Shown here piece by piece: positions 1 to 17,177 of a DNA stretch of 64,000 bases. This DNA is from Pseudomonadota bacterium (GTDB taxonomy: Bacteria > Pseudomonadota > Gammaproteobacteria > Pseudomonadales > Pseudomonadaceae). A program made the position numbers and the translations under genes. The notes below the pieces were generated by a model. It did no database searches, was not told the DNA's origin, and worked only from the letters and a program-made list of their open reading frames with translations. Numbering within the stretch: the first letter of the stretch is position 1; each line of letters starts with the position of its first letter. The stretch spans positions 2,545 through 66,544 of the forward strand of contig JAZKHB010000015.1 in NCBI GenBank assembly GCA_040385585.1, in the 5' to 3' direction.

Positions 1-533
1 GTACGCGGGTTGCGGCGCAGGCCCAGGCAGCCCATCAGGTCGTTGCCGCCGATGCGCAGGGCGATGATCCGCCGGGCGTCGCCAGCCAGCAGGGCGGCGC
101 GCAGCTCACTCATGGCGCCGGGGTCGAAGACCTCGGCGGTTTCCAGGGTCGGCATCAGACACAGGTGCGAGGCGGCGACCGCCACTTCCCAGGCCCGCAG
201 GTTGTTCAGGCCCAGCTTGGGCAGGACGAAGCCGTCGACATGACGGATCAAGGGCCAGTCATTGAGCCGCGCCGCCATCTCCGAGGTGCGTGGGCGCACG
301 AACAACAGCGGCCCGCCGGCCGGACGGCCGCCACGGGCGTCGATCGCCTCCAGCAGGCCCTGCAGGTTGAGCAGCGCGACGTTGACGTCCAGTTCGGCCA
401 CCGCGTCCTCCAGGCACACCACCAGGGAGCGCAGACCGATGATCTTCTGGCCGAACACCACGTCCAGCAGGTCCTGGCGGGTGGCGGGCATATAGAGCGT
501 GGCGCCCAGTGCGTAGGGCGAGTGCTTGTCCAT
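1..533 (-). CDS. HpcH/HpaI aldolase / citrate-lyase-beta-like C-C lyase (Ter-associated); 3' end lies outside the window
   Basis: Own translation from ATG 533-531: MDKHSPYALGATLYMPATRQDLLDVVFGQKIIGLRSLVVCLEDAV...ALRIGGNDLMGCLGLRRNPR, which reads as a TIM-barrel lyase. Absent from the ORF track because it runs off the edge. Its ATG overlaps the upstream stop (TAATG). Confidence 0.7.
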   Translation of the reverse strand, partial: MDKHSPYALGATLYMPATRQDLLDVVFGQKIIGLRSLVVCLEDAVAELDVNVALLNLQGLLEAIDARGGRPAGGPLLFVRPRTSEMAARLNDWPLIRHVDGFVLPKLGLNNLRAWEVAVAASHLCLMPTLETAEVFDPGAMSELRAALLAGDARRIIALRIGGNDLMGCLGLRRNPR

Positions 534-1636
534 TAGCGGACCCTTTTGATGATGGTGACGGCCCGGTAGGGCCCCAAGGCCGCGCCGGCTTCTTCGACTT
601 CAATGCCCAGGCGGGCGGCCAGGTGCAGCAGCAACTGCACATCCTGGTCGGTCCGCGCGCGTACCAGCACGCTGTGCGGCACCCGCCGCAGCACGGCCCG
701 GGTGGCCTCGGCGATACCCGGCTTGATGCGGTTCGGGTTGTCGATGGCAAACCGCGCCGCCAGGTCGCCGATGGTCTGCCGGGCGCTGGCCTGCAGCATC
801 CGGCGCTGTTCGGTCGACCAGGGCTGGGCGGCGGCCACTGGAGCGCTCAGGCCCCGGCGCAGGCCATCGATTGTCTCGACAAAGGCGCGGGTGACATCAT
901 AAGGCCGTAGATTCTCATACTGCATGCAGCCGTGGTAGCCGCCGTCCTCGGTCCAGATGGTCCGCGAGATCAGCCCCGACACCGTGGCGCCGAGAATCCC
1001 CGAAGGAATCAGCCAGTCGTCGCTGGAGGGCGCGAGCCAGGCGTGACCACAGGGGTCGGCCAGGGTCACCAGCGGCGGCTCGCCGACGAAGCGCGGGTCG
1101 CCCCCCAGGCTGCGCGCCAGCTCCCCGGCGATGGCGCCCTTGCCGGTCCAGCCGTCGACGAAGACGATATTGGCCGCGCCATGGCGGGCGATCACTGCGT
1201 CCAGCGCGACCCGGTCCAGGCCGCGGTCGCGGATGATGCTCAGGCCGTAATGCCGCACCGCGCGGCCCCGCTCGGCCAGCGCCCGGCGCAGCAGCGCACC
1301 AAGGGGCGCGCCGGCGCGCACGAAGGACACCAGGGCGATGCTCGGCCCGGCGAAGCGCGCGTCCAGGGCGACCGCCAGGGCGGCCACGTCCGCGGCCATG
1401 CGCTGGCCGTTCTGCGCCAGGGCCTGGGCATAGAGTGCCTGGTGCACCTCGCCGGGCGGGTTTTCCGCGCCGATCATCTCGGAATAATGCCGTTGCTGGG
1501 ACTGGATCAGCCGCTCCTTCTCCTCGGCCGAGGTGATCTCGATCTGCAGCGGCTGCAGCAGAAAGTCCACGTCCTCGGGCAGGTAGCTGCCGTGCAGGCT
1601 GCGCAGGGCCTCAGACACCGGCGCCTCCCTGGGCAT
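533..1636 (-). CDS. Ter-associated PRTase-fold protein of the 'StiP' family
   Basis: 367-aa ORF starting at ATG 1636. Contains a PRPP-loop-like IVFVDGWTGKGAIAGEL and an N-terminal GSYLPEDVDFLL typical of the family as I recall it. Overlaps both neighbouring genes. Confidence 0.65.
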   Translation of the reverse strand: MPREAPVSEALRSLHGSYLPEDVDFLLQPLQIEITSAEEKERLIQSQQRHYSEMIGAENPPGEVHQALYAQALAQNGQRMAADVAALAVALDARFAGPSIALVSFVRAGAPLGALLRRALAERGRAVRHYGLSIIRDRGLDRVALDAVIARHGAANIVFVDGWTGKGAIAGELARSLGGDPRFVGEPPLVTLADPCGHAWLAPSSDDWLIPSGILGATVSGLISRTIWTEDGGYHGCMQYENLRPYDVTRAFVETIDGLRRGLSAPVAAAQPWSTEQRRMLQASARQTIGDLAARFAIDNPNRIKPGIAEATRAVLRRVPHSVLVRARTDQDVQLLLHLAARLGIEVEEAGAALGPYRAVTIIKRVR

Positions 1637-2396
1637 CCAGGCCCAGCACCGCGTCGGCCAACTGACCGCGGGTCGGCGTGCCCCACCAGTCGCACTCGCT
1701 CATAAAGCCCAGGTCGGACAGGCTGTCGCCGAATCCCAGCAGCGGGCGCTCGCCATGCAGGGCCCGGTCGCGGCGGATCCACTCCTGCACCGCCGTGCGC
1801 TTGCGCAGGCACTCGGGCAGAAACGCCAGGTTGTTGCCGTTGCGGTGCACGTACAGGCCCGTCAGGGGGTTGCGGGCGCGCACGGCGGCCAGCACCCGCG
1901 CCAGCACTTCGTCGTCGTCCTGGTTGTGCTTGATCACCACGTAGTTGGCCAGGCCGGCCTCCTCCACCACCCAACCGCGCAGGGAAATTTCCAGCGCTTC
2001 GCCCAGGCCCAGCACCTGCGCGCAGAGCAGCGGCAGGCTGTCCTGCTGGTCGGCCAGGCGCGCGCTCATCTGCGCGTGCCAGGTCGACTCCAGTTGACCC
2101 TCGGGCGTCAGCATCGCACCGCCATGGGCGCAGATGGCGCCGTGGCTGAAAGGCAGCTGCACCCGCTGATAAGCCTCGACGCTGCGCGCTGTCACTGGCA
2201 CCACGTCGGCGCTGGCCAGCAGCCATTCCACGAACTGCTTCTGCACCGGACGCATAAAGCCGATGGGCGCGCCCTGCAGATCCAGGGCCGCGGAGTGCCG
2301 CGGGCCGTCGCGCCAGGGGCCGGCGTCGAGCTTGCGGGCGCTCTGGAACAGGGTGTCGTCCAGATCGACGAATACCAGCGGACGTTCAAGGGCCAT
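1611..2396 (-). CDS. HAD-superfamily phosphatase (Ter-associated)
   Basis: 261 aa. HAD motif I is VFVDLDDTLF (DxDxT); the C-terminal GFGDSLSDLGFM resembles motif IV. Overlaps the upstream PRTase by 11 nt and the downstream gene by 26 nt. Confidence 0.8.
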   Translation of the reverse strand: MALERPLVFVDLDDTLFQSARKLDAGPWRDGPRHSAALDLQGAPIGFMRPVQKQFVEWLLASADVVPVTARSVEAYQRVQLPFSHGAICAHGGAMLTPEGQLESTWHAQMSARLADQQDSLPLLCAQVLGLGEALEISLRGWVVEEAGLANYVVIKHNQDDDEVLARVLAAVRARNPLTGLYVHRNGNNLAFLPECLRKRTAVQEWIRRDRALHGERPLLGFGDSLSDLGFMSECDWWGTPTRGQLADAVLGLDAQGGAGV

Positions 2397-3513
2397 CGAC
2401 TATCACCTCGGCATTCAGGGCGGCGACCAGCCGCGGATCGACCGCCGCGGCCGGCGTTTCGCTGCACAGCAGCACCCGGTCGAACTGACCGGGGGCGACG
2501 TTATACAGGAAGTTGGCGATACCCAGGCCATAGTTGTCGGTAAACGCCAGGGCGTGCTGCACCGCATGGCCCAGGGCGATGGGCGAGCGGCTGGTGGAGG
2601 AAAAGTGCACGTCGGCACCGCGCTGCTCCAGGGCCTCGGCCAGCAGAAAGGGCCGCCACACATGCTCGCTGGTGCCCAACACCAGGATCCGCTCGCCGGG
2701 ACGCAGCTGCACCTGGCGGCTGAGGGTCTCGCGGTGGCTGCGCACGCCCAGGCGCGCCCAGTCGTTTTCCGGCTGCAGGGGCCAGTCGCCGCGGGCCACG
2801 CTGTCGACCTTGGGCATGTCCGGCAACGGCGCGTCAGGATCGGCATGCCACTGGTAACGGCCCTCGAGCAGCGCCACCGAGCGGGCGTGTGGCCCCAGGG
2901 CCTGGCTGACCGCGCCTTCGGACCAGTCGGTCAGGGTCGCGGTGACCACCTGTTCGATCCGGCTCAGGCCCGCCTCCAGCAGCGCCCGGTACAGGTTGAT
3001 AAAGGTCTTGCCGGTGCTGGCCTCGTCGTCCACCAGCACCAGGCTGCGCGCCTGCATGACCCGGCGCAGGGTTTCCGGGTCCTGGGGCAGGTGCATCAGG
3101 TGCGCGCTGGCGTGGCTGTGCTCTTCCTCGAAGCGGCAGAGCAGCGGCGTGCCCAGCGGGTGGCGGGTGCTGGTCAGGTAGACGCTGTCGTCGCGGCGCC
3201 GGCTCAGCTCGCGCTGCACCCCGGCGCCCAGACCCACCGCGGTTTCCGCCATGCCCAGCACCAGCACCGGTCCCGGCAGGTCGGCGGGAATCAGCGCGGC
3301 CAGGGCGCCGAACGCCTCGGCCATGCGCGCCGGGCGCACCGGGATATGCCGGCCCAGCACCTTGGAGACGAACAGAAAGGCGCGCTTGGGGTTGCGCCGC
3401 TCGGCGAAGCCGAACAGGGCATCCGGCGCCTCGCTGGCACGGCTGACCTGCACATCCAGGCGTCCGCGGGCGAGCTGCACCTGCCGATCAGGGGGGAGAG
3501 AAACGTCGGTCAT
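2386..3513 (-). CDS. Phosphoribosyltransferase-domain protein (Ter-associated PRTase with C-terminal extension)
   Basis: PRPP-binding motif SLVLVDDEASTGKTF. The ORF opens at a TTG (3537); I chose the first ATG (3513, MTDVSLPP). Confidence 0.75.
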   Translation of the reverse strand: MTDVSLPPDRQVQLARGRLDVQVSRASEAPDALFGFAERRNPKRAFLFVSKVLGRHIPVRPARMAEAFGALAALIPADLPGPVLVLGMAETAVGLGAGVQRELSRRRDDSVYLTSTRHPLGTPLLCRFEEEHSHASAHLMHLPQDPETLRRVMQARSLVLVDDEASTGKTFINLYRALLEAGLSRIEQVVTATLTDWSEGAVSQALGPHARSVALLEGRYQWHADPDAPLPDMPKVDSVARGDWPLQPENDWARLGVRSHRETLSRQVQLRPGERILVLGTSEHVWRPFLLAEALEQRGADVHFSSTSRSPIALGHAVQHALAFTDNYGLGIANFLYNVAPGQFDRVLLCSETPAAAVDPRLVAALNAEVIVDGP

Positions 3514-3554
3514 GGGGGTTCCACGCAAAACCAGCAAGAAACAAGGCAGAGCAT

Positions 3555-3632: not shown

Positions 3633-4181
3633 CTAGCGTTGCGCAACCTCGCGGTTGGCCCGGCGCGTGCGCAACAGGCTTGCCACGCGCCAGCCGATAA
3701 ACAGCAGCAGCGCCGCCAGCAGCGTCAGAAACAGGGTATTGAACAAGGGGAACGGCTCATCGCGGCTAGTGGTGGCCTCGATGGAGATCAGGTTGGGGAA
3801 TGTCGAGAGTATCTGGATGCGCCAGCCGTAATAGCGGATCAGCGCCAGTTGATCGGCATCGCGGGACAACCCCTGGGCCCGGGCCTGCACATCGGCCGAG
3901 TCGAACTTGAAGTGCCAGGGGAAGCCCCAGCCGGTGTCCTCGTTGCGATAGACCCTGACTTCCTGGGTATCCGGGTGCTGAGTGTTGATGTAATAGACAT
4001 CGCGTGTCGGGCCGTCGGCCAGGTTTTCCGCATTGATCACGCCATCTTTATCGACCCGCTTGACCTCCACCCCGGTCACCTGCACCACCTCGTGGCGCGG
4101 CAGCAGGTAGTCCAGGGCGACGCCCGTGGCCAGCACCAGCAGCACGACCAGTGCAGCCAGTATCTTCTTCAGTACGCTCAT
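3633..4181 (-). CDS. DUF1523-like membrane-anchored protein
   Basis: 182 aa. N-terminal TM helix (ILAALVVLLVLATGVAL) and C-terminal TM helix (LFNTLFLTLLAALLLFIGW). The central YYINTQHPDT...VYRNEDTGWGFPWHFKFDSADVQA matches my memory of DUF1523. Own Shine-Dalgarno GGAGAGGG. Confidence 0.6.
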   Translation of the reverse strand: MSVLKKILAALVVLLVLATGVALDYLLPRHEVVQVTGVEVKRVDKDGVINAENLADGPTRDVYYINTQHPDTQEVRVYRNEDTGWGFPWHFKFDSADVQARAQGLSRDADQLALIRYYGWRIQILSTFPNLISIEATTSRDEPFPLFNTLFLTLLAALLLFIGWRVASLLRTRRANREVAQR

Positions 4182-4254: not shown

Positions 4255-5400
4255 TCAGTGAACCTTGGCTTCGACTCGCCACAACGACGCCTGCACCTGA
4301 CGGATCAGTTCCGGCGTCGTCATGCTCCGCTCAGGGCGGGCCCGGGCCACCGGCACCCCCGCGGCCTCGAGAAAAGCCAGCACCAGGGCGCTCTTGACCG
4401 CGAAATTCATGTTCTGGGTGTCGCGCATCGAGGAGGTCACCACCCCGGCCACCAGACCGCTGGGGTCGAACACCGGACCGCCGCTGGACCCCGGCTGGAT
4501 CGGCGCGGTGAACTGCAGCAGCCCGGCATCGTCGAACGGCCCGAACAGCCCCGACACGCAGCCCTGGGTCACCTGCACCCCGCCGCCGGCCACGCCAGCC
4601 AGGGGAAAGCCCAGGGTGACGATATTCTCCCCCAGCTCGCAGCCCGGTCCCTCGCGAAAGGTCACCGGCTGAAAGCCACGGGTATCGGGCACGCGCAGCA
4701 GCGCCAGGTCGTTCTTGCTGTCCATCACCACCAGTTCGGCGCCGTGACGGCCATCGAAGGAGACGATACTAAGGCTGTCGACGCCTTCGATCACATGGGC
4801 ACAGGTAAGGATATGTTGCGAAGACACGGCAAAGCCGGTGCCGGTGCAGCTGCGCCGCTCGGCCGCCGCACCGCCGCCTTGGGGCCGTTGGGGGTGGCGC
4901 TCATCCAGCTCCACGCCCAGGCGCCGGCCCAGCGCCGCCAGGCCGTAGGCCGAACCGTCGGCCAGGGCACGCACCTTCCACTGGCCTTGGCGCCGGTACA
5001 GCTCCGCCAGGACCATGGCCGACTCACCCGAATCGCTCAGGTCGTGGCTGTATTCGATGCCGGCATCGACTTTCAGGCTCACCCGGCCCAGGCGCTGCAA
5101 CGGGCCGATGGCCTGGAACACATAGAGAATCACCAGCACCCGTTCCACCGCCGGCGGCAGTTGCGCCAGGGTACAGCTGCAACTCAGCTCGTCTTTCTGG
5201 CCCTGCCAGGTGAGCCAGGCGGTGTCCGGGCGATGGATCAGCGCCACCTCGCCCTGGGGCGTGCGCCGCTCGTCCACCGGCAGCAGGGCCAGGCCGGCGT
5301 AATCGCCCAACAGGCCGTCGCTGACGCTACGATCCAGGATCAAGCGGCACTGCTGCTGATCGGCCAAGGGCGCATTGGCACCCGGGGTCAGGGTGATCAT
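4255..5400 (-). CDS. TerD-like domain fused to a trypsin-like (S1/Trypsin_2-type) serine protease
   Basis: 381 aa. The N-terminal ~165 aa resemble TerA-N/TerD (MITLTPGANAPL..., AMVLAELYRRQGQWKVRALADGSAYGLAALGRRLGV). The C-terminal half carries TCAHV (His202), NDLALL (Asp231) and GSSGGP (Ser306). ATGA overlap with the ATP-grasp gene. Confidence 0.8.
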   Translation of the reverse strand: MITLTPGANAPLADQQQCRLILDRSVSDGLLGDYAGLALLPVDERRTPQGEVALIHRPDTAWLTWQGQKDELSCSCTLAQLPPAVERVLVILYVFQAIGPLQRLGRVSLKVDAGIEYSHDLSDSGESAMVLAELYRRQGQWKVRALADGSAYGLAALGRRLGVELDERHPQRPQGGGAAAERRSCTGTGFAVSSQHILTCAHVIEGVDSLSIVSFDGRHGAELVVMDSKNDLALLRVPDTRGFQPVTFREGPGCELGENIVTLGFPLAGVAGGGVQVTQGCVSGLFGPFDDAGLLQFTAPIQPGSSGGPVFDPSGLVAGVVTSSMRDTQNMNFAVKSALVLAFLEAAGVPVARARPERSMTTPELIRQVQASLWRVEAKVH

Positions 5401-6413
5401 CCGTGCAATTCCTGGGTGGCGGGCGGGAGGGCAACTGGCGTGGTAATGGCTTTGACCGTCACCCCGTCGCGCCAGGCGCTGACCGGCTCCGGCAAGCCGA
5501 GACGGCGAGTGGCGAAGATACCCGGCAGGTTGATCCCGGCCAGGGCCGTGTAACCGATACCGCCGGAGGGGCGCAGGTTGATTTCCAGCAGATGGGGCAG
5601 GCCCTCCGCGTCCTCGCGGGTCTGTACGTTGACAATCCCGTCACAGCCGAAATACGCCGCCGCCGCCAAGGCCAGGTCCACCGCCGGGCTCTCGCGCTCC
5701 AGGCGCTGCACCGTGCCAGCCTTGCGCCGCGCGACCCAGGCCACCACCGTACCAGCCTCGCAGACCATGTCCACCGAGCACTCCTCGCCCGCCAGGTAGC
5801 GCATCACCAGCTGCGGCTTGAGCTTGCGCGCGCGGGCATAAGCCTCGACAAAGGCCGGGGCGTGCACCCGGCGCGCATCGGGATTGGCGAAGCAGGCGAA
5901 GGGATCGCAATCCGCTTCCAGCCGCCAGAAACCCTGGCCATAGATGCCGTGAGTGGGTTTGACGCACACCGGGCCGTCGGCGGCCAGCCGGTCGATGGCC
6001 GTCTGCAGCTGCTCGGCCGACTCGACCACGATGGATTCGGCGCAGCGCAGGCCCGCGGCCTGGGCCGCGGCGGTGAACAGGCCCTTGTCGTCGACACGCT
6101 CGAAGCAGGCCAGGGACAGGGCGCCGGTGACCAGCTGGATACCGGCCGCCTCGAACTGTTGACGCGCCGGCTCGAACAGCTGCCCCGCGCGCCCGGCCAG
6201 CACCACGCGGATGCCGTGTTCGCGGGCCCGGGCCAGGACCCAGGGGATGCGCTCGGCGTCCTCGGCCGGCTCGCGCCAGGCCTGGTCGGCCATGCCGGTG
6301 ATTTCCGGGCGGTGCTGGCGATGGGAGGCATAGACCGTGACCGCGGCCGGCAGGACGCGCCGGGCCGCTTCGATCACTTCACGCTGGCTGGATTGGCCTT
6401 CCAGGAACCACAT
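5397..6413 (-). CDS. ATP-grasp enzyme (Ter-associated)
   Basis: ATP-grasp signatures VCVKPTHGIYGQGFW and HLLEINLRPSGGIGYT. The track ORF extends to 6560, but its N-terminal 49 aa look non-coding, so I chose ATG 6413 (MWFLEGQ). Confidence 0.75.
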   Translation of the reverse strand: MWFLEGQSSQREVIEAARRVLPAAVTVYASHRQHRPEITGMADQAWREPAEDAERIPWVLARAREHGIRVVLAGRAGQLFEPARQQFEAAGIQLVTGALSLACFERVDDKGLFTAAAQAAGLRCAESIVVESAEQLQTAIDRLAADGPVCVKPTHGIYGQGFWRLEADCDPFACFANPDARRVHAPAFVEAYARARKLKPQLVMRYLAGEECSVDMVCEAGTVVAWVARRKAGTVQRLERESPAVDLALAAAAYFGCDGIVNVQTREDAEGLPHLLEINLRPSGGIGYTALAGINLPGIFATRRLGLPEPVSAWRDGVTVKAITTPVALPPATQELHG

Positions 6414-6748
6414 ATCTTTATCCTTAAAGGTACGGCAGGGCCGGCGCAGGGCAGTTATCGCCGGTGCTGGCCGGCAGAATCGGGCCCGGGGTCGGGCGTT
6501 GGCAAACAAAGTAAGACACATCCGGAAAAAGGTCGGCTGGCTACCCGCCCGGAGGATCATTTACCATCTTAATAGTGTATGGCTAATGAAGGCGAATCAG
6601 TCGCATCGTTATGCCAGAATCGTCCTTCACCGGCGATCACCTGCAGGCATGCCCGGCCCCTATCGGCTGAGGGCGCTTCCAGGCGCAGGCTAGAGCCCCG
6701 GCACGGGCACCGATGTTCCCTTTCCAACCACGGCACGGATTCCTACCG
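6414..6748. promoter_or_regulatory. Divergent control region between the Ter enzyme operon and terZABCDE
   Basis: 335-bp non-coding gap between divergent first genes. It has an AT-richer core at ~6555-6640 within an otherwise GC-rich sequence. Confidence 0.55.
6561..6589 (+). promoter_or_regulatory. Candidate sigma70-type promoter for terZ
   Basis: TTACCA, 17-nt spacer, TAATGA. This would give a ~155-nt leader. It is a pattern match by eye only. Confidence 0.25.
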
Positions 6749-7336
6749 ATGAGCATCTCCCTCGCGAAAAACCAGACCATCTCCCTGGAAAAGCAAAGCA
6801 GCAGCCTGAGCAAGGTCAGCATGGGCCTGGGTTGGGATCCGGCAAAACCCACTGGCTTCTTCGGCAAAATGCTGGGCGGCGCCAGCGACATCGACCTCGA
6901 CGCCTCCTGCATCCTCTTTGACGCCCAGAAGCAGCCACTGGACAATATCTGGTTCCAGCAACTGCAATCGCGCGATGGCGCCATCCAGCACTCCGGCGAC
7001 AACCGCACCGGTGAAGGCGACGGCGACGACGAAACCATCCAGGTCGACCTCGATCGCCTGCCGGCCAACGTGCAGACCCTGGTCTTCACCGTCAACTCCT
7101 TCCAGGGCCAGACCTTCGACAAGGTCGCCAACGCCTATTGCCGCCTCGTCGACCTGGGCTCGCGCAAGGAACTGGCCCGCTTCGACCTGACCGGCAAGGG
7201 TTCGCACACCGGCGTGGTCATGGCCATGCTCAAGCGCACCGCCAACGGCTGGGACATGACCGCCATCGGCACGCCGACCAACGGCCGCACCGTGCAGGAC
7301 CTGCTGAACCTGGCCGCCCAGGCCATTCCGGCATGA
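6749..7336 (+). CDS. terZ: TerD-family protein, TerZ position
   Basis: MSISLAKNQTISLEKQSS...GLGWDPA; Ca-binding motif GDNRTGEGDGDDE. Start chosen by the canonical TerD N-terminus (M13 of the track ORF). ATGA overlap with terA. Confidence 0.88.
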   Translation: MSISLAKNQTISLEKQSSSLSKVSMGLGWDPAKPTGFFGKMLGGASDIDLDASCILFDAQKQPLDNIWFQQLQSRDGAIQHSGDNRTGEGDGDDETIQVDLDRLPANVQTLVFTVNSFQGQTFDKVANAYCRLVDLGSRKELARFDLTGKGSHTGVVMAMLKRTANGWDMTAIGTPTNGRTVQDLLNLAAQAIPA

Positions 7337-8571
7337 GTCTGCTGACGCCGGGCGCCAACGCGTCCGTGCCTAGCGGCACACTCAGCGCCACTGTGCGTTT
7401 CAGCCCGACCAGCGTGGCGGGCGCCGATATCGACGTCTCGGCGTTTCTGCTGACCACCGCGGGCAAGGTGCGCGGCGACCAGGACATGATTTTCTATGGG
7501 CAAAAAAGCAGCGCCGACACCAGCGTCACGCTCAGTGCCTCGAACCCCGGCCAGGTGAGCTTCAGCCTGGACCTGGAGCGCCTGGACCCGGCCATCGAGA
7601 AGATCGCCCTGACCGCGACCATCTACGAGAACCGCGCCACCTTCGCCACGCTGCAGAGCCTGGCCCTGAGCATCGAGCAGACCGGCACAGTGCTTATAGA
7701 AGCGCCCATCCCCACCCAGGGCATGGCGGAAACCGCGTTGATCCTCGGTGAGTTCTACCGTCGCCAGGGCGCCTGGAAATTCCGCTGCATCGCCCAGGGC
7801 TTCGCCGGCGGCCTGCAGCCCCTGGCCGAGCACTTCGGCATCACGGTAGCGGCGGCGGAACCGACTCCGGCGCCCCCGCCAGCGGCCGCGGCACCGGCTC
7901 CTTCGCCTAGCCCTGCACCGAGCCCCGCGCCACCGGCGAAAAGTACGGTCTCCCTGACCAAGATCACCCTGGACAAGCAGCGCAGCAGTATCAGCCTGGA
8001 GAAGACCGCCAGCGGCTTCGGCGAGATCCGCATCAACCTGAACTGGAACCGCGGCACACCCCAGGCCAGCAAAGGCCTGCTCTCCGGGCTGTTCGGCCGC
8101 GCCAGCAACGGCATCGACCTGGACGTCGGCTGCCTGTTCGAGCTGGCGGACGGCCGCAAGGGCGCGGTGCAGGCCCTGGGCGACGCCTTCGGCAGCTTCG
8201 AGCACCCGCCCTTTATCGAACTCAAGGGCGACGACCGTACCGGCGCGGTCAGCGACGGCGAATGGATGCGCATCAATGGCGGCCAGTGGGACGCGGTCAA
8301 GCGCGTCCTGATCTATGCCTTCATCTACGAAGGAGCACCCAACTGGTCCAATACCGGCGGGGTGATCACCCTGTATGTGCCGGGCCAGCCGCCGATCGAG
8401 GTGCAGCTGAGCGAGGGCACCAATAACATGAACATGTGCGCCATCGCCCTGCTGGAAAACGTCGGCGGCGCGGTTAAGGTGTCGCGCCAGGTGCGGTATT
8501 TCAAGGGTCACCAGGAGGTCGACCAGGCCTTCGGCTGGGGCATGCGCTGGGCCGCCGGTTCCAAGGACTAA
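7333..8571 (+). CDS. terA: TerA-like protein with two TerD-like domains joined by a Pro/Ala/Ser linker
   Basis: N-terminal half: MSLLTPGANASVP...[34 protein letters not shown]. Linker: AAAEPTPAPPPAAAAPAPSPSPAPSPAPPA. C-terminal half: ISLEKTASGFGEIRINLNW...GDDRTGAVSDGE. Confidence 0.85.
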   Translation: MSLLTPGANASVPSGTLSATVRFSPTSVAGADIDVSAFLLTTAGKVRGDQDMIFYGQKSSADTSVTLSASNPGQVSFSLDLERLDPAIEKIALTATIYENRATFATLQSLALSIEQTGTVLIEAPIPTQGMAETALILGEFYRRQGAWKFRCIAQGFAGGLQPLAEHFGITVAAAEPTPAPPPAAAAPAPSPSPAPSPAPPAKSTVSLTKITLDKQRSSISLEKTASGFGEIRINLNWNRGTPQASKGLLSGLFGRASNGIDLDVGCLFELADGRKGAVQALGDAFGSFEHPPFIELKGDDRTGAVSDGEWMRINGGQWDAVKRVLIYAFIYEGAPNWSNTGGVITLYVPGQPPIEVQLSEGTNNMNMCAIALLENVGGAVKVSRQVRYFKGHQEVDQAFGWGMRWAAGSKD

Positions 8572-8596
8572 TACGTTTCGCTTAGAGGAAAACATC

Positions 8597-9046
8597 ATGC
8601 TTAACTGGCTCAAAACCAACACCGCCGCGGCGCGTACGCGCCTGGCAGAAGAAATCGGCAAGTTCAAGAACCGCGAGTTCATGGAAGCGGTCGTTGCCGG
8701 CTGCGCCTTGGTATCGGCAGCCGATGGCGATATCAACGCCAGCGAAAAACAGAAAATGATCGGTTTTATCCAGAATTCGGACGAACTCAAGGTGTTTGAC
8801 CTGACCTTGGTGATCGATACCTTCAACAAGATCTGTGGCAAGTTCGAATTCGACGCGTCCATCGGCCGCGCCGAAGCCTTGAAACTGGTCGGTCGCCTGC
8901 GCAACAACACCGACGCGGCACGCTTGCTGGTGCGCGTATGCTGCGCGGTGGGCAATGCCGACGGTAACTTCGACAGCAGCGAGCAGGCGGCCTGCCGGGC
9001 CATCTGCACCGAGCTCGGGCTGTCTCCCTCTGAATTTGATTTGTGA
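8597..9046 (+). CDS. terB: Tellurite-resistance protein TerB
   Basis: 149 aa; the helical TerB pattern (AADGDINASEKQKM..., VGNADGNFDSSEQAA) occurs twice. Good Shine-Dalgarno AGAGGAAAA. Confidence 0.88.
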   Translation: MLNWLKTNTAAARTRLAEEIGKFKNREFMEAVVAGCALVSAADGDINASEKQKMIGFIQNSDELKVFDLTLVIDTFNKICGKFEFDASIGRAEALKLVGRLRNNTDAARLLVRVCCAVGNADGNFDSSEQAACRAICTELGLSPSEFDL

Positions 9047-9055
9047 GTATCTGAA

Positions 9056-10087
9056 TTGGAAAGCACCGCTATCGGCTTCCCGCCGTTAACCATCGCCGTC
9101 TTCGTCGGCCTGGCCCTCGTGGCCCTGGCCATCGACCTGTTTACCCACAAGGGTGACAAGCCGATCAGCCTGCTCAACGCCTCGCTCTGGTCGGTGTTCT
9201 GGGTGGTCATTTCCATGGCCTTCGCCGGCTTTCTCTATGTGTCCCACGGCTCCCAGGTCGCCAGCCTGTTCGTGACCGGCTACGCCCTGGAGAAAGTCCT
9301 GAGCGTGGACAACCTGTTCGTCTTCATGGCGATCTTTTCCTGGTTCAGCATCCCCGACAACCTGCGGCACCGGGTGCTCTACTGGGGCATCATCGGCGCC
9401 ATCGTGTTCCGCCTGATCTTCGTGGTCATCGGCACCGGCCTGCTGGCCTTCGGCCCCTGGGTCGAGGTGCTGTTCGCGGTGGTCGTGGCCTGGACCGCGG
9501 TGATGATGCTCAAGAGCAGCGGCGACAGCGAGGGGATCGAGGACTATTCCGGCCATATCGCCTACCGGGCCACCCAGCGCCTGTTCCCGGTCTGGCCCAA
9601 GCTGCATGGCCACAATTTCTTCATCTCGCGCAAGGAAGCCGAAGGCGAGCTGAGGAAGCCCGGCAACGGCGGCATCAGCCTGGCGGCCAAGGGCGCCTGG
9701 TTCGCCACTCCGCTGCTGCTGTGCGTGGCCGTGGTCGAGGTGTCGGATGTGATGTTTGCCTTCGACTCGGTGCCGGCCATCATCGCCGTTAGCCGCGAGC
9801 CGCTGATCGTTTACTCGGCGATGATCTTCGCCATCCTGGGTCTGCGGACCATGTACTTCGTGCTCGAAGCCCTCAAGCGCTACCTGGTGCACCTGGAGAA
9901 GGCAGTTATCGCCTTGCTGTTTTTTATCTCCGCCAAGCTTGCACTCAACGCAACTGACCACATATTCCATACCGGGTATGCCATCGATGCCAATACCAGC
10001 CTGATCGTGGTGCTGGTGGTGCTGGCGATCGGCATCGTGGCCAGCGTGCTGTTTCCGGAAAAACCGGATGAGGCCAGCGAAAAGTAA
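9056..10087 (+). CDS. terC: TerC-family integral membrane protein
   Basis: 343 aa, multi-pass hydrophobic; YALEKVLSVDNLFVF and FAFDSVPAI are TerC signatures. TTG at 9056 is the only start codon available in the open frame after the in-frame stop at 9044-9046. Confidence 0.88.
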   Translation: MESTAIGFPPLTIAVFVGLALVALAIDLFTHKGDKPISLLNASLWSVFWVVISMAFAGFLYVSHGSQVASLFVTGYALEKVLSVDNLFVFMAIFSWFSIPDNLRHRVLYWGIIGAIVFRLIFVVIGTGLLAFGPWVEVLFAVVVAWTAVMMLKSSGDSEGIEDYSGHIAYRATQRLFPVWPKLHGHNFFISRKEAEGELRKPGNGGISLAAKGAWFATPLLLCVAVVEVSDVMFAFDSVPAIIAVSREPLIVYSAMIFAILGLRTMYFVLEALKRYLVHLEKAVIALLFFISAKLALNATDHIFHTGYAIDANTSLIVVLVVLAIGIVASVLFPEKPDEASEK

Positions 10088-10111
10088 CCATCGAGGATAA
10101 GGAGACCTCTC

Positions 10112-10687
10112 ATGGCGATTACTCTGCAGAAAGGCGGTAACCTGTCGCTGTCCAAGACCGACCCGAGCCTCAAGCGCATTTTGATTGGCTTGGGTTGGGA
10201 CGAACGGGCCACCGACGGGACCGATTTCGACCTGGATGCCAGCGCCTTCATGCTGACGGCCCAGGGCAAGGTGCGCACTGACGCGGACTTTATCTACTAC
10301 AACCAGCTGCGCTCGCCGGAAGGTGCCCTGGAGCACACCGGCGACAACCGTTCGGGGCAGGGCGAAGGCGACGACGAAACCCTCCGAGTCGACCTGAGCA
10401 AGATTCCGGCAGGCATCGAAAAGATCGTGATCACGGTCACCATCCACGATGCCGCTGCACGCAAGCAGAACTTCGGCCAGGTGGCCAACGCCTTTATCCG
10501 CGTGGTCAACGAAGAGTCGAATGTGGAAATCGTGCGGTATGACCTGGCCGAGGACTATTCCACCGAAACGGCGATGGTCTTCGGCGAGCTCTACAGCCAC
10601 AACGGCGAATGGAAATTCCGCGCCGTGGGCCAGGGCTACGCGGGCGGCCTGGCCGCCATGTGCAATCAATACGGCATTGTTGTTTAA
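10112..10687 (+). CDS. terD: TerD
   Basis: 191 aa. MAITLQKGGNLSLSK..., GDNRSGQGEGDDE, FGELYSHNGEWKFRAVGQGYAGGL. Shine-Dalgarno AAGGAGA. Confidence 0.93.
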   Translation: MAITLQKGGNLSLSKTDPSLKRILIGLGWDERATDGTDFDLDASAFMLTAQGKVRTDADFIYYNQLRSPEGALEHTGDNRSGQGEGDDETLRVDLSKIPAGIEKIVITVTIHDAAARKQNFGQVANAFIRVVNEESNVEIVRYDLAEDYSTETAMVFGELYSHNGEWKFRAVGQGYAGGLAAMCNQYGIVV

Positions 10688-10714
10688 CGGCAGTCAACTA
10701 AAGGGAAAACGAAC

Positions 10715-11290
10715 ATGGCTATCAGTCTGAGCAAGGGCGGCAACGTCTCGCTGTCCAAGGAAGCACCCGGCCTCAACGAAATCACCGTGGGCCTGGGCTG
10801 GGATGCACGCGTTACCGACGGCACCGACTTCGACCTGGATGCCTCGGTGTTCATCACTGGCGAGAACGGCAAGGTGTTGTCCGATGCGTCCTTCATCTTC
10901 TACAACAACAAGACCTCGGCCTGCGGCAACGTCGAACACCTGGGCGACAACCGCACCGGCGACGGCGACGGCGACGACGAGAAGGTCAACGTCAAGCTCA
11001 ACGGCCTGGCCGCGGACGTGAAGAAGCTGGTCTTCGCCGTCACCATCCACGACGCCGATGCCCGCAAGCAGAGCTTCGGCCAGGTCAGCAACGCCTTTAT
11101 CCGTGTGGTCAACAAGACCGACGGCAAGGAAATCGCCCGCTACGACCTGTCGGAAGACGCCTCCACCGAAACCGCTATGATCTTCGGCGAGCTGTACCGC
11201 CACGGCGACGAGTGGAAGTTCAAGGCCATCGGCCAGGGCTTCGCCGGCGGTCTGCAGCCGTTAGCCGCCTCCCACGGCGTCGGTGTATAA
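10715..11290 (+). CDS. terE: TerD paralog, TerE position
   Basis: 191 aa. [15 protein letters not shown]..., [37 protein letters not shown]. Confidence 0.92.
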
Positions 11291-14894: not shown

Positions 14895-14987
14895 CCCTGC
14901 TGGCCGAGGCTCAGCGGCCCGTCCTGGCAGGCTAGACTGTCGGCCTGGGTTTTAACCGACCAAGACTTGAACAAGAAGGATTTCGCC

Positions 14988-16310
14988 ATGCAACTCACCC
15001 GTGGACAACGCCTGCGCCTGACCGACCTGATCGGCCCAGACCTGCGCTTTCAGATCGGCCTGGATGCCCGTGTCGGTGGCACCACGCCAGACTTCGCCTG
15101 TTTCGGCCTGGATGGCGCCGGCAAGCTGGCTGACGAACGCTACATGACCTTCTTCAACCAACCCACGAGCCCCTGCGGCGGCGTCAGCCTGCTGCCCGGT
15201 AGCGAAGCAGTATTCGCCTTCGACCTGCAGCGCCTGCCGGCCAGCCTCGAGCGCCTGGTGATCACCGCCACGGTGGATGCGCCCGTCACCCTCGGCCAGC
15301 TCAGCAGCGGCTCGCTGCGTGTGCTCGACGGCCCACTGGAAACCGGACGCTTCGACCTGCAGGCCAGCGATTACGCCGCCGAGCGCGCGCTGATGCTGCT
15401 GGAACTCTACCGCAAGGACGGCCAATGGCGCGTGGCGATCACCGGTCAGGGATTCAATGGCGGCCTGGCCGCGCTGGTCGAGCATTTCGGCGGCGAAGTC
15501 GCGGCGCCGGCCGCGGCCCCTCAGCAGAGCGCCGCGCGTATCAACCTGGAAAAGCGCCTGGAGAAGGAAGCCCCGCACCTGATCAGCCTGGTCAAGAAGG
15601 CTGCCGTGTCCCTGGAAAAGAAGGGCATGACGGCTCACCGCGCCAAGGTCTGCCTATGCCTGGATATCTCGGCCTCCATGTCTCAGCTGTACGATTCGGG
15701 CCAGGTACAGGCCTTTGCCGAGCGGGTATTGGCCCTGGGTTGCCAGTTCGACGACGACGGCGAGATCGATGTCTTCCTGTTCGGCAAGGACGTTCACCAA
15801 CCCGAGCCCATGGGCCTGGGCAATAACCGCGACTACGTGCAGCAAATCAGCCAGCGCCACAAACTGGAGTTCGACACCCGCTACGGCGCGGCGATGCAGG
15901 CCATCCGCCGCTTCTACTTTCCCGACAGCGCCGGCGGCGCGCGCACCACGCCCCATAAGGCCCAGGTGCCGGTCTATGTGATGTTTATCACCGACGGTAC
16001 CACCAGCGACCAGGCTGTGACCCAGCAGCAGCTGCGCTGGTCTAGCAATGAGCCGATTTTCTGGCAGTTCATGGGCATCGGCCGCGGCCGCAAGGGTGGT
16101 TTCTTCGGCGGTTCCGCCAGCACGGGCAGCGCGTCCGACTTTCCCTTTCTAGAAAAACTCGACGACCTGGAGGGTCGGCTGGTCGATAACGCCGACTTCT
16201 TCTCGGTCAGCTCGCCCGGTGAACACCCCGACGAGGCGCTCTACGATCTGCTGATGAACGAATACCCGGGCTGGGTGCAATTGGCCAGGCAGAACGGCCT
16301 GCTCGGCTGA
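14988..16310 (+). CDS. TerF-like protein: N-terminal TerD-like domain plus C-terminal vWA domain
   Basis: N-terminal MQLTRGQRLRLTDL...LLELYRKDGQWRVAITGQGFNGGLAALVEHFG. C-terminal MIDAS-like CLCLDISASM and VMFITDGTTSD. ATG 14988 is preceded by AAGAAGGA. Confidence 0.82.
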   Translation: MQLTRGQRLRLTDLIGPDLRFQIGLDARVGGTTPDFACFGLDGAGKLADERYMTFFNQPTSPCGGVSLLPGSEAVFAFDLQRLPASLERLVITATVDAPVTLGQLSSGSLRVLDGPLETGRFDLQASDYAAERALMLLELYRKDGQWRVAITGQGFNGGLAALVEHFGGEVAAPAAAPQQSAARINLEKRLEKEAPHLISLVKKAAVSLEKKGMTAHRAKVCLCLDISASMSQLYDSGQVQAFAERVLALGCQFDDDGEIDVFLFGKDVHQPEPMGLGNNRDYVQQISQRHKLEFDTRYGAAMQAIRRFYFPDSAGGARTTPHKAQVPVYVMFITDGTTSDQAVTQQQLRWSSNEPIFWQFMGIGRGRKGGFFGGSASTGSASDFPFLEKLDDLEGRLVDNADFFSVSSPGEHPDEALYDLLMNEYPGWVQLARQNGLLG

Positions 16311-16334: not shown

Positions 16335-17177
16335 TCAATCCAGCGCCGACGACTCCAGCCGAAACAGCGGTGCCGGCACCGCAGGATCGTCGGCGTCGGC
16401 CACCAGCAGCAGGCCGCCGTCCGGGGCGAAGGCCAGTCCTTCGATCTTCGCCCGGGGTTCCAGGCGCGCCAGGCCGACCAGGGCGAAATCGGCGTCCAGG
16501 CAACCCAGCACGCTGCCGGCGCAATCGCCGTCCAGGTAGCTGGAGTCGGTGGCCTCCGCCGCCGCGCTGAAATACAACCGGCCATCGGGGGCCAACGCCA
16601 GGTCGGTCAGGCTCAACGGCACAGCATCCAGCAGGCCCAGCTGCAGCGGTACGCTGCGCAGCAGGGCCGCCGAGCTCAACTGGCCGGCTTCCAGGTCGCG
16701 CAGCACCTGAGGTAAGTCGAGCACCAACAGGGCATTTTCGCCGCCCTGGCCATTGCCGCGCTGGGCCAGCAGCAGGGTCTGGCCCTGCACCACCGCGCCT
16801 TCCAGGTTGAGTTCCTGCAGTTGCGTTTCCAGGTGCAGGTAGAGCGGCGCCAGGTCGATGACCCGGACCTCGCCATTGAGTACCCGGCAACCGCGCCGGC
16901 GGCGCGGGGTCGAGCCCGACCCCAGGGCCAGCAAGGCGCCGTCGGGCAGCAGCGCCACGGCCTCGAAGTCGGGCTTGACCTTCTTGCGCGCCTTGGCATC
17001 CGCGGGCAGCTCGCCGGGCAGCAGCGGCCATTCGCCCCGCCATTGGCCCTGCAGGTCGTAGTGCTGCAGGCACAGGGCGTCGTCCGCCACCAGCCACAGC
17101 TGTTGCTGATGACAGACCAGGGCGCTGGCGGCCGAAAGACGCAGGTGGCCGAGCAGGGTCAGCGGCAGGCTGCGCAT
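16335..17177 (-). CDS. Hypothetical protein with repeated propeller-blade-like segments
   Basis: 280 aa. Recurrent motifs DFEAVALLPDGALLALG, NLEGAVVQGQTLLLA, LTDLALAPDGRLYFS and KIEGLAFAPDGGLLLVAD. Lies 7 nt downstream of ptsP on the same strand. Family not identified. Confidence 0.6.
   Translation of the reverse strand: MRSLPLTLLGHLRLSAASALVCHQQQLWLVADDALCLQHYDLQGQWRGEWPLLPGELPADAKARKKVKPDFEAVALLPDGALLALGSGSTPRRRRGCRVLNGEVRVIDLAPLYLHLETQLQELNLEGAVVQGQTLLLAQRGNGQGGENALLVLDLPQVLRDLEAGQLSSAALLRSVPLQLGLLDAVPLSLTDLALAPDGRLYFSAAAEATDSSYLDGDCAGSVLGCLDADFALVGLARLEPRAKIEGLAFAPDGGLLLVADADDPAVPAPLFRLESSALD

Follow-up and report, generated by a model that had tools for sequence, protein, structure and literature searches.

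The TDP gene and its two domains

The window analysed here is a 64,000-nucleotide stretch of contig JAZKHB010000015.1, and a Ter gene cluster lies close to its start. The gene of interest, at 4255..5400 on the minus strand, encodes a protein in which a TerD domain is followed by a trypsin-like serine protease domain; gene and protein are referred to below as TDP, for TerD-protease. It belongs to a minus-strand operon with the order ATP-grasp, TDP, DUF1523, PRTase_2-TRSP (a phosphoribosyltransferase, PRTase), HAD-like, StiP-PELOTA and C-C lyase (Table 1).

The initial annotation had described a single uninterrupted open reading frame (ORF) of 381 aa without giving its strand. Translation of the window agreed with this, showing an ATG start and zero internal stops, and placed the ORF on the minus strand. 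That an assembly error or frameshift had joined separate TerD and protease genes was judged extremely improbable and was rejected. The ORF is unbroken, and the linker between the domains opens with a conserved motif. In a survey of one genome per GTDB species, from which the best 80 loci were kept for context counts, relatives of TDP were encoded in 350 independent species genomes, and full-length collinearity was seen in almost all of the 80 loci kept and also in 127 plasmid records. Chance or artefact was excluded because of this spread over 350 species genomes and the collinearity of the kept loci.

The Pfam TerD profile (PF02342) matched residues 63-157 of TDP (E=7.5e-12; 45.5 bits against a gathering cut-off of 25.3). 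The assignment covers the whole N-terminal half, beyond the Pfam span, because the N-terminal 175 aa alone matched the solved TerD structures 3ibz and 2kxt (phmmer, E ~5e-9), and in BLASTP the TerA of the window aligned through its N-terminal domain with residues 4-165 (E=3e-14) and the TerD of the window with residues 39-163 (E=3e-18). The AlphaFold model of residues 1-175 had a predicted local distance difference test score (pLDDT) of 91.8 and a predicted template modelling score (pTM) of 0.90. Foldseek returned seven significant PDB fold matches for this model, including 2kxt (TM 0.67), 3ibz (TM 0.65) and 2qz7 (TM 0.60), and the N-terminus of TDP was modelled as the first strand of the TerD fold. 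The likeness of residues 1-165 to TerA-N and TerD, originally claimed from an alignment by eye, was thus upheld by Pfam, phmmer, BLASTP and the fold matches. A special kinship to TerA-N was rejected: the by-eye alignment was valid, but TerD scored better, so the domain is a generic Ca2+-less TerD domain and no derivative of TerA. Its homology extends to all the Ter paralogues of the window.

The canonical Ca2+ motifs of TerD, TerE and TerZ, GDNRTGEGDGDDE (GDN(R)TG(E)GDGDDE) and DxDxDAS, were absent from TDP, where the corresponding positions hold RPDTAWLTWQGQKDE and GDYAGLA. They were also missing from all 12 family members aligned, the most distant included, so that the loss of the Ca2+ loop noted in the initial annotation applies to TDP and to every relative aligned. 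Across 30 homologues (51-87% identity) the mean column identity was 70%, with both halves strongly constrained, and the family-invariant residues G32, A35, A38, R46, G50, W62 and W65 fell in the stretch aligning to the TerD Ca2+-motif segment. The TerD fold of the N-terminal half is intact and under strong constraint, and it lacks a metal site. Similar arrangements are found in TerA (N-terminal domain) and TerF (TerD-vWA), in which a Ca2+-motif-free TerD-fold domain is likewise fused to a second module; TerA has the N-terminal motif LTPGANA in common with TDP, and the N-terminal domain of TerF is 39% identical to TDP over 100 aa. In TerA and TerF, however, the partner is a second TerD domain or a vWA domain, whereas in TDP it is a hydrolytic enzyme.

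The linker begins with the conserved D167-x-H169-P170 and continues as a variable, low-confidence stretch rich in Gly, Ala and Ser. Beyond it, Pfam Trypsin_2 (PF13365) matched residues 187-320 (E=1.1e-25, over the gathering cut-off). The family profile matched structures of HtrA, DegP, DegS, DegQ and HTRA1/2 (E ~1e-18), and the full-length model matched the folds of DegS, HtrA1 and Rv3671c (Foldseek, E ~1e-10). The complete Ser-protease triad proposed for this region was confirmed at the level of conservation: H202, D231 and S306 were invariant in the 30 homologues and lined up with the catalytic residues of HtrA 1l1j. Invariant residues also clustered in the protease loops. The chymotrypsin fold and H-D-S triad are common to TDP, the S1C enzymes HtrA, DegP, DegS and DegQ, and MarP (Rv3671c) of M. 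tuberculosis, and the GxSGGP motif around the catalytic Ser of HtrA is also present (GSSGGP in TDP, GNSGGP in HtrA 1l1j).

In contrast to HtrA, TDP has no signal peptide, membrane anchor or PDZ domain. The maximum Kyte-Doolittle mean over 19 residues was 0.78 for the first 40 start positions, revealing no hydrophobic N-terminus, in line with the claimed lack of a signal peptide; since no such segment is present, TDP is predicted to be cytoplasmic. There was no Pfam match to a PDZ domain in TDP. In NCBIfam, it scored 73.8 bits against a cut-off of 416 for Do/HtrA (TIGR02037) and 89 against 250 for MarP, and because these scores are far under the curated cut-offs TDP is no bona fide HtrA. Relative to HtrA and MarP, it adds the N-terminal TerD domain and a C-terminal helix-strand extension. 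TDP is best described as a cytoplasmic HtrA-like (S1C) serine endopeptidase, predicted from its sequence to be catalytically intact, which carries an N-terminal TerD beta-sandwich devoid of the Ca2+ site where canonical HtrA has its signal peptide and PDZ domain.

The C-terminal extension consists of a helix (362-372) and a strand (373-379) with an invariant W374, and is present in TerD-less relatives of the protease clade. The same clade, extension included, was elsewhere found fused to Sel1 or RCC1 repeats (P0131, P0161, P0164 and others), and one 2393-aa member contains four tandem protease domains.

Table 1. Location of TDP, its parts and the neighbouring Ter genes in the window
Feature	Position	Strand	Basis
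TDP gene (381 codons + stop)	4255..5400	-	ORF list, translation, Pfam TerD + Trypsin_2, full-length orthologues
TDP residues 1-165, TerD-fold beta-sandwich, non-metal-binding type	4906..5400	-	Pfam, alignments, structure model
TDP residues 166-183, linker	4852..4905	-	alignment; pLDDT <50 at residues 172-183
TDP residues 184-346, S1C (HtrA/DegS-like) chymotrypsin-fold protease domain	4363..4851	-	Pfam, alignment, fold matches
Catalytic codon H202	4795-4797	-	
Catalytic codon D231	4708-4710	-	
Catalytic codon S306	4483-4485	-	
TDP residues 347-381, C-terminal extension	4258..4362	-	alignment, structure model
ATPgrasp_Ter amidoligase gene	5397..6413	-	Pfam PF15632 E=6.7e-40; stop overlaps TDP start
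DUF1523 protein gene, hydrophobic segments at both ends	3633..4181	-	Pfam PF07509 E=1e-57; recurrent neighbour
PRTase_2 + TRSP phosphoribosyltransferase gene	2386..3537	-	Pfam
HAD-like phosphatase gene, N-terminal FVDLDDTLF motif	1611..2396	-	translation; no Pfam match
StiP + PELOTA_1 gene	533..1636	-	Pfam
C-C bond lyase (HpcH-like) gene, 5' part, cut by window start	1..533	-	translation
terZ-terA-terB-terC-terD-terE operon, divergent from enzyme operon	6713..11290	+	Pfam, translation

Operon context and distribution of TDP

The siting of TDP inside a Ter enzyme operon, as originally claimed, was supported by the Pfam identification of its neighbours in the window. The Ter biosynthetic module, reportedly defined by Anantharaman, Iyer & Aravind in 2012, comprises ATPgrasp_Ter, PRTase_2/TRSP, StiP/PELOTA_1 and C-C_Bond_Lyase, and co-directional genes of this module were found beside terZABCDE. 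Among the surveyed loci, the gene at the HAD-like position in L091 gave weak or faint HAD-type Pfam matches (S6PP, Hydrolase_3) and that at the C-C lyase position in L010 was PF15617; in L010 the C-C lyase and a second HAD occupy the gap before terZ.

The best 80 loci showed a stable arrangement. The PRTase followed TDP in 76 of them, StiP in 75 and HAD in 75, and ATP-grasp preceded TDP in 70. In the window, the TDP start overlaps the ATP-grasp stop as ATGA (ggATGAtc), as the initial annotation had stated. The coupling itself was present, but not general: the spacer measured 37-158 nt in 68 of the 70 measurable loci, and Thiothrix has its ATP-grasp gene on the opposite strand. A conserved ATGA coupling was accordingly rejected, the overlap being confined to the lineage of the window.

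Loci with no upstream ATP-grasp match included those of Burkholderia (L017, L032, L033, L063, L070, L072 and L076). These had no terC match in the flank and kept TDP - PRTase - HAD - StiP and terZAB-DE; in L072 (8060-9552), the genes upstream of TDP encode a PadR regulator and a HAD protein. A DUF1523 gene was near this type of Ter cluster in 32 of the 80 loci. It lies between TDP and PRTase in the window and in L001, and directly upstream of and divergent from ATP-grasp in 28 loci, several of them from the P. syringae group. On a distant TARA ocean scaffold (L090, 3277-3924) the order was TDP - DUF1523 - TerB. No link between DUF1523 and Ter was found in the literature; the DUF1523 protein is a candidate partner or substrate of TDP.

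A protein database search returned 753 relatives. Among the best 120, neither the length nor the pair of Pfam domains varied; Pseudomonas supplied most of these, and Burkholderia, Stutzerimonas and Microbulbifer some. Searching 1.84 billion representatives exhaustively with HMMER yielded 84 clusters (E<=1e-30). In many of the top-scoring clusters the alignment started within the TerD half and the total length was ~370-415 aa, and in the remaining clusters the match was confined to the protease half of proteins of other lengths. Collinear orthologues were found in Pseudomonas, Burkholderia, Stutzerimonas, Thiothrix and Neorhizobium, among others. The nearest public relative, at 87% identity, was from a Pseudomonas metagenome-assembled genome (MAG).

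The architecture is not new. A protease survey catalogued it as 'TerD-Tryp' for P. syringae YP_273108.1, functionally uncharacterised (Tripathi & Sowdhamini 2008; PMC2605481), and hundreds of orthologues, Pseudomonas megaplasmid copies included, have been auto-annotated by NCBI, usually as 'trypsin-like peptidase domain-containing protein'. The initial statement that the architecture was uncharacterised thus held for function, but not for the record of its existence, which dates from 2008. YP_273108.1 and the megaplasmid protein WP_010792512.1 are collinear with TDP over their full length (51-54% identity over 99% of length), with the same two domains, invariant triad and operon position. Compared with their loci, the window has terZABCDE divergent rather than downstream, an additional DUF1523 gene between TDP and PRTase, and a TDP start coupled to the ATP-grasp stop. 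The lineage of the window's TDP differs slightly in gene order. The TerD-protease architecture is therefore known and annotated and, as a sequence observation, ordinary.

On plasmids, TDP was carried by 148, compared with 2561 carrying the PRTase. Pseudomonas accounted for 126 of the TDP plasmids, many from clinical P. aeruginosa, with listed records of 168-603 kb. In pZPPH29-KPC, TDP is WP_010792512.1 ('trypsin-like peptidase domain-containing protein') and the order is ATP-grasp / TDP / PRTase / hypothetical (HAD-like) / StiP / HpcH-lyase / HAD / terZABCDE. The Ter cluster of a Klebsiella IncFIB/IncHI1B plasmid reads ATP-grasp / PRTase / hypothetical / StiP / HpcH with no TDP, which was absent from Klebsiella and other enterobacterial Ter clusters. 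Because of this absence and the plasmid counts, TDP is regarded as a lineage-specific accessory gene outside the core chemistry. Carriage by phages was rejected, since only 2 of 2.9 million viral contigs encoded a relative.

Eight divergent lineages (31-44% identity) were compared. The Ter enzyme context was retained in five, namely Thiothrix, Neorhizobium, two metagenomic lineages and the TARA ocean scaffold. In Thiothrix, TDP heads the PRTase operon, and the TARA scaffold has PRTase / TDP - DUF1523 - TerB; the TDP-PRTase adjacency thus persisted in both despite the relocated ATP-grasp gene. One metagenomic lineage has a 519-aa NYN (RNase) - OST-HTH - TerD fusion gene between TDP and PRTase (L088, 3256-4815), a second fusion of TerD to a hydrolytic enzyme at the same operon position.

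The question raised at the outset, whether the fusion is confined to Ter clusters, was answered in the negative by the other three lineages, and 'always in Ter clusters' was rejected: one copy was in Competibacteraceae, one in a MAG directly after guaB-guaA and one in a MAG after the atp operon. A universal or obligatory arm of the system was likewise not sustained, given these copies and the enterobacterial clusters that lack TDP. The TerD halves of the non-Ter homologues (L087, 3542-7829; L083/L084, 10001-11218) matched the Pfam profile nearly full-length. One non-Ter homologue begins 10 nt past guaB-guaA on the same strand, and in Competibacteraceae purH and purD lie 4-8 kb downstream of the fusion gene; these purine-gene neighbours may be fortuitous or may point to nucleotide metabolism. 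Overall, TDP is a conserved, lineage-specific accessory to the operon for the Ter 'nucleoside-like metabolite', present in Pseudomonas, Burkholderia and certain other proteobacteria.

These contexts bear on whether TDP could be a biosynthetic or maturation peptidase that acts on the peptide-nucleoside product or precursor of the ATP-grasp and PRTase enzymes, either by trimming it or by hydrolysing one of its amide bonds. In most loci TDP sits after the ATP-grasp gene and before the PRTase gene, which would suit such a role, as would the translational coupling to ATP-grasp in the window. That coupling is not conserved, however, the Burkholderia loci have no upstream ATP-grasp gene, homologues also stand alone outside Ter clusters, and the fold is that of protein-degrading HtrA enzymes. 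Since enterobacteria run the identical enzyme set without TDP, a purely biosynthetic role is unlikely, and we rate participation of this kind as very improbable.

The remaining features of the cluster are as follows. The ATP-grasp ORF (5397-6560, minus strand) is 387 aa long; its probable start is M50 at 6413, giving 338 aa, and an annotated plasmid orthologue has 332 aa. The PRTase and HAD genes overlap by 11 nt (2386-2396), HAD and StiP overlap by 26 nt (1611-1636), and the StiP stop and lyase start share one base, TGATG, at 533. On the other strand, terA starts at 7333, overlapping the terZ stop in a further ATGA (7333-7336). The cluster is chromosomal, next to thyA-lgt-ptsP, with a GC of 0.60-0.72 against 0.62-0.68 in the flank. 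A TerF-like TerD-vWA gene (14967-16310, plus strand) is located ~3.7 kb past terE, with thyA, lgt and other genes intervening, and converges with a DUF6929/DUF6910 (phytase-like) gene (16335-17177, minus strand). In 21 of 80 other loci the TerF-like gene is directly after terE on the opposite strand, with 32-38% identity where visible.

Possible roles of the TerD-linked protease

[quoted passage not shown] The original proposal for TDP, a sensor or oligomerisation module wired to a proteolytic effector, was a reasonable inference. In the version preferred here, the TerD module would serve as regulatory or targeting input and the cytoplasmic protease as output, so that the Ter response to stress and phage would gain a regulatory or effector branch based on proteolysis; we give this an about even chance of being correct. 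The output would be regulated cleavage of Ter-system or other cytoplasmic proteins, and TDP would stand outside the metabolite chemistry and outside tellurite resistance itself. Other TerD-enzyme fusions in the same systems are consistent with this, namely TerF (TerD-vWA) in the window and the NYN-OST-HTH-TerD protein.

Two versions of the input can be envisaged. In the first, the TerD module would dock the protease onto the assembly of TerD paralogues (TerZ/A/D/E/F), following what is presumed for the Ca2+-less domains of TerA and TerF. In the second, the remodelled loops that formerly held Ca2+ would bind what the neighbouring enzymes make, either the product or an intermediate. The second gains from three points: it is the enzyme operon, not terZABCDE, that TDP travels with, the NYN-OST-HTH-TerD fusion holds the same operon position, and TerD and TerE carry the historical annotation 'cAMP-binding protein'. 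This last name was found on TerD/TerE in a Klebsiella plasmid annotation, and is linked to Dictyostelium CABP1. Overall, docking and metabolite sensing appear about equally plausible.

Several observations weigh against a TerD input coupled to a protease output. The whole-protein model had a pTM of 0.56, leaving the inter-domain geometry uncertain, and W62 and W65 were not kept in the most distant family members. The three divergent lineages that encode the fusion far from any Ter gene indicate that TDP is able to work without an adjacent Ter module. To our knowledge, no ligand other than Ca2+ has been demonstrated for any TerD domain, and TDP has lost the Ca2+ site. No experiments on any TDP family member were found in the literature.

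Results from P. citronellolis limit the role of TDP in tellurite resistance. In that species, terZABCDE alone gave high tellurite resistance with terCD as the core, terCD alone inhibited growth and were toxic, and terA or terZ relieved this effect (PMC8779313); the paper makes no mention of a TDP protease or of the Ter enzyme genes. The TDP protease is therefore not needed for this tellurite resistance, since terZABCDE alone suffices for a high level. The toxicity of terCD could also be read in favour of a quality-control or turnover protease that degrades excess or unassembled TerD paralogues through TerD-TerD contacts and so limits TerC/TerD toxicity. HtrA-type enzymes are classical quality-control proteases, and the homology of the N-terminal domain to all window Ter paralogues would fit. 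This proposal, which overlaps with the input-output reading as a sub-case of docking, seems unlikely to us; TDP travels with the enzyme operon and not with terZABCDE.

A more drastic output would be abortive infection, in which the TerD domain senses a phage-induced nucleoside-like signal and indiscriminate proteolysis kills or arrests the cell. The phage resistance reported for Ter clusters would agree with this, as would the fusion of the same protease clade to other domains such as Sel1 and RCC1 repeats, and the protease domain partly matched the defence effector domains RT-Protease_XI (1.7e-16), LmuA, Avs1b and HamA. Like TDP, Avs1b, protease-type Lamassu LmuA and RT-Protease class XI have a Trypsin_2-type protease fused to or controlled by a sensing module, but their sensing or partner components are not present with TDP. 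The PADLOC matches (Avs1b, LmuA, RT-Protease_XI) were limited to TDP residues ~183-342 with none for partner genes, and membership of a known defence system was rejected because PADLOC matched the protease domain only and nothing among the other operon proteins. Moreover, what the defence matches span is just the generic protease fold, and HtrA or MarP match at least as well; the Ter enzymes have no PADLOC model, and the window cluster is chromosomal beside thyA-lgt-ptsP with a GC little different from its flank. An abortive-infection role is possible on generic protease-domain similarity, at what we consider a low probability.

A specific form of the sensing idea is that the adjacent ATP-grasp, PRTase, HAD and C-C lyase enzymes produce a nucleoside-like molecule for which the TerD domain acts as receptor, and that binding switches on the protease. 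CalpL is a ligand-activated protease, which is likened to TDP in concept only. The receptor proposal is a tentative one that we hold to be improbable; if true, TDP would be a small-molecule-gated cytoplasmic protease and the first direct read-out of the Ter signal, and its ligand the first other than Ca2+ shown for a bacterial TerD fold.

Ter clusters, with their resistance to tellurite, colicins and phages and a predicted signalling metabolite, have posed a mechanistic puzzle for decades. TDP, a protease whose clean catalytic serine comes tied to a TerD domain and a metabolite operon, offers an easy genetic and biochemical handle on the system. Its carriers are the 126 Pseudomonas plasmids, of which many come from clinical P. 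aeruginosa, and many plant-associated Pseudomonas.

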